In this document: positions 16,321 to 29,073 of the stretch, one piece after another
Numbering within the stretch: position 1 is the first letter of the stretch
Layout: each line of letters starts with the position of its first letter
Virus record (IMG/VR): IMGVR_UViG_3300017761_002137
Coordinates: 1-29,318 of that record
Source of the DNA: a virus
Lineage: Duplodnaviria > Caudoviricetes
Reading direction: 5' to 3' (one strand)
DNA length: 29,318 nt
Made by a program: the position numbers and the translations under genes
The notes under the pieces: model-generated
Told to the model about the DNA's origin: nothing
What the model saw: only the letters and a program-made list of their open reading frames with translations
Databases searched by the model: none

Positions 16321-16324
<4 letters not shown>

Positions 16325-17565
16325 AATTAACGGATTCCAGTGCGGCAAATGTAGGATTAAACGCAGTAAGAACAATTACATCTGCGACAAGTGCGTTCCG
16401 GCAGTTTATGGTTTACTCGGCCACAACCATTTCGTCGGTTATTTCTGGTGCAATCGGTATTATTAAAAATGGTAGTGGCACATTAACACTTTCGGGGAAC
16501 AACACTTTTACTGGAGGAGTAACCATATTGGACAACGGTATCCTCACTCTTGCAAACGCAAACGCCGCTGGAACTGGAACGATATTTCTCAAATCAACTC
16601 AAACTGGAGCTTTTAACACTCTTACAGTGAATGGTGGACTTACCATAGCCAACCCCATCAGCATCGACAGTAGCACAGGCCGCGAGGGTATAGCCAGCAC
16701 GGGAACAGGCAACACCAGTTTGACAGGGGGCATTGCAATAACAACGCCAAATTCGACAACGATTTATATCAGCAACACGCAATCATCTGGAAACCTTACC
16801 GCGTCTGGAGGCATCAGCGGATCAACATTTGTCGGAACAATTTCGTTGCGAGGAAGTCAGTCCGGAAATAGTTCGTTTTTAAACGGAGTAATATCATTGT
16901 CACCAACCACATCATTCGTTGATATTAACGCAACTGGAAACTGGACGCTCAATACCGCTGGAAGCACTTATGTTCAGACGATAATAAACGGGGCTGGGAG
17001 TTGTGTTTTAGGAGTCAATAATGCTCTTTCAACAAGTTCTTTTCTGAACAATGCCGTGACCACCTCCACTGGCTCAGTTGATTTAAATGGATACAACCAA
17101 TCGCTCGGAGGTTTGGCCTCGGTTGTTCCTACAACCGGAAATGGTGTACGCATAGTTAATAATGGATCAGTCAATTCGGTTTTAACTATTGCAGGCATGA
17201 CTGGAGATCGAACACATAACGGAACGATTGTGGACGGCACGACAAATAACATTTCTGTCGTTATGAATAGTGCCGGGCGCATACAGATATTTAATCGTGT
17301 TAATACCTACACAGGATCAACAAGCATCACCGCAGGAACACTCAGAATTGCCGCTCTAATCAGTGGGCCTGCTGGTAAATTTTCGTTAGCAAATTTTACA
17401 AACACAACACTTTCTGTAACATTTACTACTGCTCCACTCGTGGGTGAGACTTACCGATTGCTGCCCGGAGCCACAACGCAAACATACGCAAGCGTGACAC
17501 TCGTGGGCGCACCAAGCCGAACCGCAACTTACAATTCTGCAAATTCAACTTTAACAATAGCATGA
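16321..17565 (+). CDS. Adhesin / receptor-binding protein with autotransporter-associated beta-strand repeats
   Basis: IIKNGSGTLTLSGNNTFTGGVTI and NTYTGSTSITAGTLRI match the passenger-associated repeat consensus; T/S/G/N-rich; no beta-barrel or signal peptide seen. Confidence 0.75.
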
Positions 17566-25685: not shown

Positions 25686-27404
25686 ATGTGGATACTACCC
25701 AAAAACCTAACCTCTCACACATTTCCCTCTGCTTTGGCTACGGAGGTATCGACCTCGGACTCCACCGAATTTTCGGAGACAGACTACGACTCGCTGCTGT
25801 TTGCGAGATCGAGGCATTTGCTCTGGAAAATGCTTTGTCGAAAATGGAAGCAGGACTCCTTCCTCCGGCTCCGATCTGGAATGATTTACGGACATTCCCT
25901 TGGGAAGAGTTTCAAGATGTCAGCTTGGTATCGGGAGGTTTTCCCTGCCAGCCATTCTCCGCTGCTGGAAAGCGAGATGGAGATCAAGACCCAAGACACC
26001 TCTTCCCATTCATCATTGATGGAATCAAACGATGCAGACCAGGACTTGTTTTCTTGGAAAATGTCGAAGGAATCCTTTCAAGCAAACTTACTGGAGAAGG
26101 TTGGGCAGACCCAGCCGGAACGCCAGTTTTGCTCCATGTCCTTAGAGAGTTGGAACGGGTGGGTTACAAAGCAACGGCAGGAATATTCAGTGCGTCTGAA
26201 GTCGGCGCTCCCCACCAGCGCAAACGAGTGTTCATCATGGCCTACCTCAAATGCGCGGGATTGGAAGGATTCCGGCCCGACCCAAGGCAATCGAAAGAAT
26301 CCCAACTTGGGGACTGCGGTGGTGAAGGATGCGGCGAACTGGCCGACACCTCAAGCGCAGGACACGCAGTGGACGCCGGAAGCATATGCCGCAGCAAAGG
26401 AGAAGCGTGGCGGAAAGATGTTCTTGAGCCTCAACATTGCGGCGCAACAGCATGGCCCAGCCGCCCAGGTCAACCCCAATACGGATGGGAGCCGCCAAGA
26501 GTTGTGGCCAACACCATCAGCGGATGGGGACAGCAGGCCGGGAGTCAATGCGGATCCGGTGAAGTGGCAGCAGATAGCGGATGCAAAGAAGGCACAGGGG
26601 ATCAACAAACAGTTATTCCTGACGACCAAGGTAGCAATGGAGGAGCAGGAGAAGATGTGGAGAACACCATCTGTAGCGGAAGAGAAGAATCAGAATACCA
26701 GCAAGCAAATCTACCTTCAGAACCAAGTGGGGGCGACTCCGAAATCGTGGGCAACTCCAAGATCGTGCAGTGCAATGGCAGCAACAATAACACAAGAGTC
26801 AGCGAACAAAGAAAACAGATTCCCGAATTTAGAAACTCAAGTTGGGAGACAACAATGGGCAACTCCTCAAGCGAGCGACCATATCGAGGGAGCGAGGACG
26901 GCAATTGGGAGCAACCAGAAATGTTTGGGGCGAGACCTGAAAACATGGGCAACTCCAAGAGTGGGTGGACAGGAGAGTGCGGAAACAAGGATAGCCAGAG
27001 GGAAGGACTTGGGTCTACTTGGTCAGGTTCAGGTGGAGACATGGGCAACACCGAACAGCTTCTGTTTCCAGCCTCCAGAGAACACGGAGCAATGGACGAA
27101 GCGAGCGGAATTCCAGCAGACCGAGAAAGGAGTGAATCTACACAAGCCGATTCAGAGCCAAGTGCTACACGAAAACGAGAAAGTGACAGGGCCAATGCCT
27201 CCGAGTGCAGCGAAATTGAACAGCCAATGGGTTACTCAACTCATGGGACTGAATCTCGGTTGGGTATCTCCGAGTTGTCCGGCCTCAGTAATTCAGAACT
27301 GGCCAAAATTCGTGAGTGGATGGTTAAAACTGACAACCGCACGGACGAACTCCGATTGCTCGGAAACGGAGTTGTCCCCGCAACAGCAACCAGAGCTTTT
27401 CTGA
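25686..27404 (+). CDS. Overlapping-frame MTase partner ('beta'): eight W-x-T-P modules plus motif IX-like segment
   Basis: 572 sense codons nested over the MTase; ATG overlaps the alpha GTG (ATGTG); KLNSQWVTQLMGLNLGW resembles motif IX. Confidence 0.75.
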   Translation: MWILPKNLTSHTFPSALATEVSTSDSTEFSETDYDSLLFARSRHLLWKMLCRKWKQDSFLRLRSGMIYGHSLGKSFKMSAWYREVFPASHSPLLESEMEIKTQDTSSHSSLMESNDADQDLFSWKMSKESFQANLLEKVGQTQPERQFCSMSLESWNGWVTKQRQEYSVRLKSALPTSANECSSWPTSNARDWKDSGPTQGNRKNPNLGTAVVKDAANWPTPQAQDTQWTPEAYAAAKEKRGGKMFLSLNIAAQQHGPAAQVNPNTDGSRQELWPTPSADGDSRPGVNADPVKWQQIADAKKAQGINKQLFLTTKVAMEEQEKMWRTPSVAEEKNQNTSKQIYLQNQVGATPKSWATPRSCSAMAATITQESANKENRFPNLETQVGRQQWATPQASDHIEGARTAIGSNQKCLGRDLKTWATPRVGGQESAETRIARGKDLGLLGQVQVETWATPNSFCFQPPENTEQWTKRAEFQQTEKGVNLHKPIQSQVLHENEKVTGPMPPSAAKLNSQWVTQLMGLNLGWVSPSCPASVIQNWPKFVSGWLKLTTARTNSDCSETELSPQQQPELF

Positions 27405-27430
27405 CACTATTGGAGAAACTAAACGGTTGA
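25688..27430 (+). CDS. C5 cytosine DNA methyltransferase, catalytic ('alpha') frame
   Basis: Motif I SLCFGYGG, II CEIE, IV GFPCQPFS, VI LENV, VIII HQRKRVF, X LRLLGNGVVP; motif IX absent; GTG start. Confidence 0.9.
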   Translation: MDTTQKPNLSHISLCFGYGGIDLGLHRIFGDRLRLAAVCEIEAFALENALSKMEAGLLPPAPIWNDLRTFPWEEFQDVSLVSGGFPCQPFSAAGKRDGDQDPRHLFPFIIDGIKRCRPGLVFLENVEGILSSKLTGEGWADPAGTPVLLHVLRELERVGYKATAGIFSASEVGAPHQRKRVFIMAYLKCAGLEGFRPDPRQSKESQLGDCGGEGCGELADTSSAGHAVDAGSICRSKGEAWRKDVLEPQHCGATAWPSRPGQPQYGWEPPRVVANTISGWGQQAGSQCGSGEVAADSGCKEGTGDQQTVIPDDQGSNGGAGEDVENTICSGREESEYQQANLPSEPSGGDSEIVGNSKIVQCNGSNNNTRVSEQRKQIPEFRNSSWETTMGNSSSERPYRGSEDGNWEQPEMFGARPENMGNSKSGWTGECGNKDSQREGLGSTWSGSGGDMGNTEQLLFPASREHGAMDEASGIPADRERSESTQADSEPSATRKRESDRANASECSEIEQPMGYSTHGTESRLGISELSGLSNSELAKIREWMVKTDNRTDELRLLGNGVVPATATRAFLTLLEKLNG

Positions 27431-27606: not shown

Positions 27607-27785
27607 GCAACGAACAAAAGGTTTGGCTTGCACTTCAGTCTGCAAAGACGGATATTATCCTTGCGATTGCTGACTACAAGAAACCTAATCACACGGCTTG
27701 CATGGATTGGGTAGACCAAGCGACAGCAAGGCTGATGGAGGCTTATGGTCTGCTTGAAGAAGACAAGGGCGGATACGAACTTTAG
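27603..27785 (+). CDS. Hypothetical protein (60 aa)
   Basis: MSNEQKVW..., ATGA coupling with the previous ORF. Confidence 0.5.
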   Translation: MSNEQKVWLALQSAKTDIILAIADYKKPNHTACMDWVDQATARLMEAYGLLEEDKGGYEL

Positions 27786-27912
27786 AATTTTGAGATGCAA
27801 TAACGTGGTATTGTGGCGGATTGAAACCCTTGGCAGGGCTTGATCTGGTTAGGAATAACACCATCCTCGCAACCACATAAAACGAGGACTCTCAAGTATC
27901 GTTAAACAATAC

Positions 27913-27940
27913 TTGACTCTACACTCAGGCAGTGTAGTGT
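27913..27940 (+). promoter_or_regulatory. Sigma70-like promoter with operator-like palindrome
   Basis: TTGACT-N16-TAGTGT; CTACACT-N5-AGTGTAG inverted repeat at 27919-27937. Confidence 0.65.
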
Positions 27941-27947
27941 TCAATCC

Positions 27948-28089
27948 GCTGTAGAAATACAGCCGTTCGCGTAGAAACGAACGCAATAGAAGATTAAATC
28001 GAAACAACAATATATCATCCCTCCGTCACGGAAATATTTCTACCCGACATTCAATCGGTCTTCTACCGTGGCGGGGGATGGCCCCCTTT
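27948..28089 (+). ncRNA. Candidate structured 5' leader of the replication gene
   Basis: Two hairpins bearing GTAGAAA, a long stem 28016-28080 enclosing TTTCTAC and TCTTCTA, and an alternative GGGGG/CCCCC hairpin. Confidence 0.55.
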
Positions 28090-28092
28090 ATT

Positions 28093-29073
28093 ATGGAATA
28101 CAAAATTGAGCAATATGAACGAGTCGATACTATGCAAGAAGGAAGTATCGAAGATATATTGATTGGAGTAACGAAGCCTTCGATAGATAGGTTGCTAAAG
28201 ATGCAAAACCCAGGAGACTGCATCGCTCTTTATACTTTATACTGCTACATTAGGAAGTGGCAGAAGAATTCAAATGTATTTGCAACATCAGAGTATGTAA
28301 TGAAAGCTTTGGACTGGGGGAGGGATAGGTTTTCAAGAGCAAAGAATCAATTGGTTGAGGCAAAATTTATTGAAGATGTTAAGGTTAGAACAGAAGAAAA
28401 AAAGATAGATGGTTGGTATGTAAAAGTTCGTTATGCAATGAATGCCACACTGGGGAAATTCCACACTACGGAAATCCCACAGGGTGGAAATTCCGCAGAC
28501 AAATACCCTTTACTGATAAATGAAATACCTTTTAATGGTAATGAAATACTTATGCGTGATCAAAGAAGAGAAGAATTTGTTTTGAACAGTAAAATACAAG
28601 TAGAATTAAACGATGCCAGGGCGAAGACAGAAATTGAAATGCAATCAGCAGCTTCGGACTTTGAAACTTTCTACTCCAGTTACCCGCGCAAGGTTTCCAA
28701 AACCAATGCCGAGAAATCGTGGAAGAAACAGAAGTGCGTTCTATCTGAAGTCATGCCATCCCTTCAAAAGCAAATGAAGCTCTGGACTGATCCTCAATTT
28801 ATTCCTCACCCTGCGACATGGCTAAACGGAAGGCGTTGGGAGGATGAAACACCTAATTCAATACCATCACACCAGAACACATATAAAACACACTCTAACG
28901 CCAACCTCGCGCAAAAGAAGCGCAACTGGTATGACATCTGTGAAGAGCGTGGAGAGCGTGAAGCATTCAAAACCTGGGTTACAACGAAAAGACCGGAGGA
29001 ATGGTGCGATTACCTTCCATCAATGGACACTCGTTGGTGGATCGAATTTTCTGATAGACCCGTAGAGTTTTAG
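28093..29073 (+). CDS. Phage replication initiator / replisome organizer
   Basis: N-terminal winged-helix-like region, internal iterons, C-terminal FETFYSSYPRKVSK..AEKSW...FIPHPATWLNGRRWEDE; start 28078, 28093 or 28132. Confidence 0.8.
   Translation: MEYKIEQYERVDTMQEGSIEDILIGVTKPSIDRLLKMQNPGDCIALYTLYCYIRKWQKNSNVFATSEYVMKALDWGRDRFSRAKNQLVEAKFIEDVKVRTEEKKIDGWYVKVRYAMNATLGKFHTTEIPQGGNSADKYPLLINEIPFNGNEILMRDQRREEFVLNSKIQVELNDARAKTEIEMQSAASDFETFYSSYPRKVSKTNAEKSWKKQKCVLSEVMPSLQKQMKLWTDPQFIPHPATWLNGRRWEDETPNSIPSHQNTYKTHSNANLAQKKRNWYDICEERGEREAFKTWVTTKRPEEWCDYLPSMDTRWWIEFSDRPVEF
28445..28552 (+). repeat. Putative replication origin: 16-bp iterons plus AT-rich repeats
   Basis: CCACACTGGGGAAATT, CCACACTACGGAAATC, CCACAGGGTGGAAATT in tandem, then AAATACC..T repeats at 28501, 28523 and a partial one at 28544. 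Confidence 0.7.

Follow-up and report, generated by a model that had tools for sequence, protein, structure and literature searches.

A conserved leader RNA ahead of a phage replication initiator gene, probably a rearranged cousin of the P1 and P4 immunity RNAs

Comparison with homologous sequences indicates that the replication initiator gene of the phage recorded as IMGVR_UViG_3300017761_002137 is preceded by a leader that is a conserved RNA with two covarying long-range pairings. This is an uncatalogued RNA that, to go by our analysis, most likely works as the C4 and CI RNAs do and yet is not a member of their Rfam family; its relation to the P1 and P4 immunity RNAs is probably that of a rearranged cousin. 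The window, by which we mean the whole stretch of 29,318 nt that was analysed, is a 29.3-kb phage record rated 43% complete by CheckV, with genes that include tail, lysis and methylase functions, and all coordinates given here refer to it. The leader lies on the plus strand between a predicted promoter (27913-27940) and the initiator gene (28093-29073).

The initial annotation described the promoter as a good one, which fits half of it: the -35 hexamer TTGACT (27913-27918) is good, whereas the -10 hexamer TAGTGT (27935-27940), set at a spacer of 16 nt, is non-consensus, and the predicted sigma70-type site is absent from the output of a consensus promoter scan of the window. A TTGAC-like -35 element is found with a loose regular expression in all 75 distinct homologous promoter regions. 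The region 27916-27940 contains a palindrome (inverted repeat I4, plus strand, arms 27919-27925 and 27931-27937) that is possibly an operator and that extends to 13 bp in the homologue L071; spacer palindromes with arms of at least 5 occur in 37% of the 75 homologous promoters, as opposed to 17% of shuffles. A separate 12-bp inverted repeat (27892-27916) overlaps the -35 box, and an AT-rich palindrome similar to it precedes the promoter in several homologues.

The gene downstream had been taken for a replication initiator, and profile comparison bears this out: the product of 28093-29073 (plus strand) is lambda O-like and matches phrog_270 at E 8.6e-22. Its start is the ATG at 28093, as in the homologues, an in-frame ATG upstream at 28078 not being conserved among homologous leaders. 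Within the gene lie three iteron-like repeats spaced 16 bp apart (28441-28497; repeat family D1) with AT-rich repeats after them, a sequence arrangement that marks a probable replication origin. The complete relative G002 has its homologue of the initiator gene at the head of an operon, followed by a DnaB-like helicase gene. The N-terminus encoded directly after the leader is freely swapped, with 43 classes of first eight residues among leader loci. One leader can be joined to many different first genes, often with an ORF of fewer than 150 aa before the initiator, and promoter, upstream half and downstream half of the leader appear to recombine, as in L091.

All coordinates given for leader elements in the initial annotation proved correct. 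The upstream half opens with two abutting hairpins. The first, P1 (27948-27963), carries a GNRA tetraloop, as do 45 of 50 leaders, and shows two-sided changes at 5 of its 6 pairs; the second, P2 (27964-27983), comes from predicted folds, with pair counts made on an alignment fitted to the model (A7), and holds in its loop a box that we call a (27971-27977), which resembles the a1 box of the C4 systems. A second box, b (TAGAAGA, 27987-27993), is likewise b1-like, and it is followed by an A-rich linker (27994-28015) that spans 20-24 nt in 92 of 105 leaders and ends in the dinucleotide AU, at positions -2 and -1 relative to the next element. That element is a module (28016-28083) predicted to form a 68-nt processed RNA with a permuted C4-like architecture. 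Its closing stem (28016-28031 with 28066-28080; 15 bp, one bulge) has changed on both sides in 14 of its 15 pairs, again as counted on a model-fitted alignment, and GCC comes directly after it. Inside the stem, the 5' junction strand is a' (TTTCTAC, 28037-28043), partner of a, and the 3' junction strand is b' (TCTTCTA, 28059-28065), partner of b. These two complements are separated by an inner hairpin, Y (28044-28058; 4 bp, 7-nt loop), that was absent from the initial annotation and that varies among leaders as CCG/CGG, GCG/CGC and CUG/CAG, with an A-U to U-A change. The fold of the whole leader has a z-score of -3.14, 3 of 200 shuffles being equally good, and both 7-nt complements reappear in 5 of 20000 trials in which the upstream 50 nt are shuffled. 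A tentative third contact, c-c', joins 28001-28003 to 28050-28052 by 3 bp in the window and by 2-5 bp across leaders, and is weak (3759 of 100000 permutations). The motif GTAGAAA had been noted in both upstream hairpins. The copy in P2 is box a; the copy in P1 is incidental, a role for it having been rejected on the grounds that it agrees with the a box of its leader in just 1 of 50 cases, that of the window, the loop being so commonly a GNRA loop.

Homologues were collected in two ways. Searches with DNA patterns that prescribe parts of the linker and of the inner hairpin, together with the opening bases of b', yielded 50 distinct leaders out of 77 kept loci (the pattern set); of 69 metagenome matches, the 40 that scored above 100 bits with the full model R1 were kept and 29 were discarded, and L093 was removed as unrelated from 37 viral matches. 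L093, L112, L118, L184 and L205 are chance pattern matches from unrelated sources that do not belong to this leader family and have in common a short GC hairpin with a terminator-like hairpin and a U tract after it. The second set dispensed with DNA patterns and consisted of 84 loci reached via DnaB alignment (the DnaB set), in 75 of which R1 detects the leader at E 3e-8 or better, 65 of them distinct. Merged, the two sets comprise 105 distinct leaders. The nine DnaB loci without a leader stay negative with filters off; they have 50-2464 nt upstream of DnaB, and truncation may be the cause, given that elsewhere the distance from the leader to DnaB downstream is about 0.7-3.2 kb. All 13 loci retrieved by searching with the Rep protein also have the leader, one of them being identical to the window. 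A pattern scan of cellular genomes gave 25 matches, none leader-like by eye, the two that were run against R1 giving no match; searches of assembled genome contigs with Rep and with the DnaB of G002 returned no relatives, and blastn of the leader against 50,697 GenBank phage records returned no match. Two sequencing runs, each with a share of 0.04, yielded contigs of relatives; one of these, 227 nt long and ending near 28085, was considered as a sign of an RNA end and set aside, since the end of a contig does not mark that of an RNA and this one begins upstream of the promoter.

Pairing between loop and target, the central proposal of the initial annotation, receives strong support from covariation in these homologous leaders. 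Of the 50 leaders in the pattern set, 49 have 7 or more Watson-Crick pairs between a and a', and 47 have 6 or more between b and b' (49 if G-U is counted), b-b' being broken in L091. Of the 65 in the DnaB set, 61 form 7 or more a-a' pairs with G-U included, the other four having 5, and 63 form 6 or more Watson-Crick pairs between b and b'. When partners are swapped between leaders of the DnaB set, the complementarity of box a falls from 7.1 nt with its own partner to 4.7 nt (10 types) and that of box b from 7.3 to 4.7 nt (35 types), neither difference being reached in 50000 permutations, in which relatedness was handled solely by collapsing to types. On a MAFFT alignment of 31 leaders (A1), 100% of a-a' cells are paired and 5 of 7 pairs show two-sided changes, while controls slid along the same alignment drop to 35-44% pairing. 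The conserved, covarying complementarity that was to be looked for among the leaders of homologous rep genes is thus present in them. Two elements that seem invariant in close relatives, UUAAAU and the CCG/CGG of the inner hairpin, vary in distant ones, so that no constant core is left.

The ends of the closing stem have the form expected of an RNase P substrate. Before the stem, A(-2) is present in 104 of 105 leaders and U(-1) in 102 of 105; after its outermost G-C pair, CC follows in all 105 and RCC in 104, with the pair at +1 itself flipping between C-G (54 leaders) and G-C (51 leaders). These counts were made by a script without a CC requirement, and no counted end position falls within a search pattern. 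The stem is 14-18 bp long and the module 65-72 nt across the 105 leaders. A(-2)U(-1) is described as optimal for bacterial RNase P, with a 3' RCC pairing to GGU in L15, and C4 and pre-SRP RNA are listed there as substrates with an extended stem (PMC10731613); C4, CI and 4.5S RNA, the last of which ends in CCC, are named elsewhere as hairpin substrates of the enzyme (PMC5499578). Five C4 controls (P1, P4, N15, phiKO2 and PY54) have the same AU, stem and RCC ends as the leaders, and the annotated 77-nt mature C4 of P1 spans exactly from +1 to ACC. The RNase P RNAs of two Chthoniobacter-labelled metagenome-assembled genomes (MAGs) that hold related contigs are of class A and have retained the GGU of L15. 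A partner for GCC within the same molecule was also considered and rejected as not universal, an upstream GGY being present in just 72 of 105 leaders. The sequence thus makes it likely that the 68-nt module is cut out by host RNase P as a small RNA.

The likeness to P1 C4 and P4 CI that the initial annotation had sensed holds at the level of both modules, the upstream one having the layout of the c4-a1b1 motif and the downstream one the RNase P-type ends. Like c4-a1b1, IsrK and P4 seqA (RF03163, RF01394), the leader has a -10 box, two abutting hairpins, an a box in the second loop and a b box about 9 nt later; the -10 box and the abutting hairpins appear in the published c4-a1b1 alignment, whose rows are P4, N15, P1, phiKO2 and PY54 (PMC2864571; Weinberg et al., 2010). 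The a box of some members of the leader family, GTGAGAA, is identical to that of P4, and another, GTAGGAA, to that of phiKO2 and PY54. Unlike c4-a1b1, the leader has a GNRA first loop, as opposed to one of about 6 nt, and in place of an intrinsic terminator after b it has the A-rich linker: no such terminator was found on the plus strand at 27994-28015, whereas the controls have one. The downstream module resembles C4/CI (RF01695, clan CL00128) in its long closing stem with AU before and RCC after, in its two single-stranded boxes of 7-8 nt that are complementary to upstream boxes on the same transcript and that vary between phages, and, in the window's subgroup, in the CC after a' and the CGG before b'. 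As with P4 CI, the system is placed at replication genes.

The differences are equally definite. Where C4 is a three-way junction, the leader module is a two-way junction with one inner hairpin, b' being a junction strand rather than the loop of a hairpin (P3), and the module is shorter (65-72 versus 77-79 nt). The order a, b, a', b' is crossed in the leader, while the order a1, b1, b', a' of C4 is nested. Despite the crossed order, b' and a' meet atop the closing stem and so present an unchanged antiparallel surface, and we infer that the module is a circular permutation of the C4 recognition surface in which one hairpin has replaced two. The leader is also without the a2 and b2 boxes, the initiator beginning 12 nt later where C4 systems have icd or ant: a downstream a2/b2 match of 6+6 within 600 nt exists in just 1 of 50 leaders (the shortest stretch searched being 153 nt), and the boxes have 0 or 1 extra match elsewhere per 68-kb genome.

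Model searches are consistent with an RNA outside the known families. The Rfam search that had been proposed gave no score on the leader, in the window or at homologous loci, for the c4-a1b1 and isrK models, and no riboswitch or ribozyme match at the leader. With RF01695 (cut-off 45 bits) there was no match at E<=10 in 27700-28300, none at E<=5 in two sets of homologous loci (18 and 8) and none in 5 records, while the P1, P4, N15, phiKO2 and PY54 controls score 69-79 bits. Conversely, the full model R1 has no match at the C4 regions of P4, P1, N15, phiKO2 and PY54. A model of the upstream half alone, R2, made from 24 of the 50 leaders picked for clean alignment, was run on a 176-kb target consisting of P4, N15, phiKO2 and PY54 whole and 19.5 of the 94.8 kb of P1; it ranks the a1b1 sites of N15 and phiKO2 first and second, at E values of 1.4 and 1.6 that are not significant, and misses P4, PY54 and P1. 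These rankings at most suggest common descent with the C4 clan. The leader family has no match in Rfam 15, and no description of it was found in a literature search for which subscription papers were mostly outside scope. Four motifs were absent from the searched supplements of a survey of viral RNAs (PMC10690425), files 1 and 2 of which fell outside that search and may contain the leader family; a c4-2 motif is mentioned in Weinberg (2017; PMC5737381).

The reading that we favour, with a confidence that falls just short of even, is that of a conserved replication-operon leader from which RNase P would release a permuted C4-like RNA that binds a and b in trans and probably lowers initiator synthesis. 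On a fresh transcript made when the small RNA is absent, a-a' and b-b' would pair in cis ahead of the synthesis of the closing stem's 3' arm, b-b' being the predicted nested fold when the chain stops at 28065. Such pairing would shut the 5' arm into a ring with the linker of about 22 nt, and, on geometric reasoning, the ring would hinder a stem of about 16 bp and 1.5 turns from closing while its 3' end is still on the polymerase. With the stem incomplete the processing site would be absent, and rep would be expressed. Once processed RNA has accumulated, it would occupy a and b, the stem would close fully and the transcript would be cut, possibly being terminated as well where a U tract follows GCC. 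As each cut would yield more small RNA, the shut-off would be self-reinforcing, as in P4, whose CI RNA halts the expression of replication genes through seqA and seqC (PMC4825925; PMC10111431; PMC3632133). Phages with different a and b letters would escape, giving a type specificity comparable to that between P1 and P7, which comes down to four changed bases (PMC5320573). Counting against this reading are the silence of the Rfam models, the non-significant E values of R2, the missing downstream targets and lysogeny markers, the broken b-b' of L091 and the four leaders with just 5 a-a' pairs, and helix letters also change in RNAs that act purely in cis.

What such a device would be for depends in part on how these phages live. 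The tyrosine integrase (PF00589), resolvase (PF00239) and ParA-type (PF13614) families have no match in any of five near-complete relatives, HTH_3 (PF01381) appears below cut-off in two of the five, and PHROGs gives no repressor or antirepressor among the 91 ORFs of G002; divergent genes could escape such comparisons. In contrast to the carriers of C4 and CI, these relatives thus show no lysogeny markers and give no sign of a lysogeny that would need immunity; a likelier use is to time replication or to exclude related phages that co-infect the cell. Related DnaB genes are found on two contigs in Chthoniobacter-labelled MAGs and on two in archaeal-labelled MAGs, only a hint of a Verrucomicrobia host, as the binning of short phage contigs is unreliable. 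We offer a fuller version of our reading more tentatively, with doubt outweighing belief: a circularly permuted RNA of the C4/CI kind, which host RNase P matures and which is fused with its own target, would form a 146-nt leader that times or caps replication in a large group of non-temperate lake phages, dozens of a/b codes giving type-specific exclusion between relatives that co-infect and the topology of the helix, a 1.5-turn stem unable to close within a pseudoknot ring, acting as the switch.

The evidence admits other readings, of which the most serious dispenses with a diffusible RNA. A double pseudoknot on each transcript could set translation or mRNA half-life purely in cis, possibly through RNase P access, with a and b drifting neutrally. 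The single leader copy in each of 5 near-complete 68-kb relatives would suit such an arrangement, as would the absence of downstream targets and of lysogeny markers, the narrow range of linker length and the tentative third contact, which fit a compact fold, and the closing stem that ends 11-13 nt before the AUG in 61 of 65 leaders of the DnaB set. A fold alone, however, has no input for switching, and trans-acting systems are what the leader resembles in its c4-a1b1-like layout and in its conserved ends of the processing type; we regard a purely cis-acting leader as possible, if distinctly doubtful. Improbable to a greater degree is a tRNA-end mimic or a fold that binds a protein or ligand, whether for autoregulation by the initiator or as a riboswitch or ribozyme, in which case the reader of RCC would be something other than RNase P. 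The compactness of the fold, its GNRA loop, the conserved single-stranded bases and the invariant CC would be at home in such an RNA, but the constant core vanishes once distant leaders are included, the N-terminus on the initiator side is exchanged among 43 classes, and the riboswitch and ribozyme models of Rfam are silent at the leader. The rep leaders of IncI and IncB plasmids, in which the antisense RNA Inc is counter-transcribed and a translated leader peptide is coupled to rep, also have long-range loop pairing before a replication initiator gene, and a counter-transcript could by analogy block an activating pseudoknot here. A pseudoknot does stand before the rep gene, with a minus-strand promoter-like site at 28119-28090 and a minus-strand terminator-like site at P2, yet such sites are at chance level in the window (4 promoter-like against 4.3 expected, 3 terminator-like against 2.0), which is without an AUG-started leader peptide upstream of 28078. 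Unlike the plasmid leaders, moreover, the present one has two pairings, RNase P-type ends with an RCC that counter-transcription leaves unexplained, and neighbouring genes mostly without SD motifs, and we consider this mechanism highly improbable.

A last alternative keeps the small RNA and reverses its sign, and it turns on the hairpin Z (GGGGG-ATGG-CCCCC, 28073-28086, with TTTATT at 28087-28092 next to it), which the 3' arm of the closing stem can possibly form, although it has no covariation support. The initial annotation proposed a toggle of termination or translation in which Z takes part; as a conserved terminator Z is rejected. In the window the Z state lies 7.2 kcal/mol above the closed stem (the lowest gaps between Z and stem being script artefacts in which AU pairs lengthen the stem); own and swapped tails fold equally well within subgroups, with 12406 and 6909 of 20000 permutations; and 5 bp plus a U-rich tail occur together in just 14 of 105 leaders. 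Comparison of the sequences indicates that what is conserved is a pyrimidine tail, not a terminator, the 5-nt tail having 0 or 1 purine in 104 of 105 leaders. Z reaches -5 kcal/mol or lower in 50 of the 54 leaders with C at +1, the window's subgroup, where its median is -8.2 kcal/mol, as against 7 of the 51 with G at +1, and a U tract after GCC has the opposite distribution (5 of 54 versus 41 of 51). Cis pairing might then open the stem and let Z cover the start region (OFF), while a short RNA in trans restores the stem and turns rep ON. The almost purine-free tail and the prevalence of Z in the window's subgroup fit this, and so do the 12 nt that are free before the AUG with the stem closed, as opposed to 6 with Z; and because genes of these phages rarely have an SD motif (5 of 31, 5 of 35 and 5 of 36, versus 9 of 23 in N15 and 23 of 52 in P1), structure near the AUG should matter. 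There is a precedent in the related IsrK, which activates its own long transcript, whereas lowered expression is what we propose for the leader. The scarcity of Z in the other subgroup and the lack of covariation between arm and tail within subgroups speak against a general role for it, and we judge activation unlikely. The direction of control in our favoured reading is nonetheless uncertain, inasmuch as an open outer stem would, on the folding model, free Z over the start region in the window's subgroup.

The known C4 and CI RNAs come from temperate phages and satellites of Proteobacteria. If our interpretation is true, the two-box antisense design matured by RNase P would be wider than Rfam models detect, and rewirable, with a permuted minimal version sitting directly on the initiator of phages that seem not to be temperate and that probably infect Verrucomicrobia. 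A large natural family would be added to the non-tRNA substrates of RNase P, and the 105 natural variants, with their 10 types of a and 35 types of b in the DnaB set, would allow direct comparison of cognate with non-cognate pairs and could be used as orthogonal RNA switch pairs.

Two features of the window away from the leader may be recorded here. Two long frames (25686-27404 and 25688-27430; 572 and 580 aa) overlap along the C5 methyltransferase gene, only the 580-aa frame matching Pfam, and a similar double frame is seen in L234 (3469-4374 and 3614-4228). In the tail region, the protein encoded at 16321-17565 contains passenger-associated-transport repeats (PF12951, E 9.7e-11).
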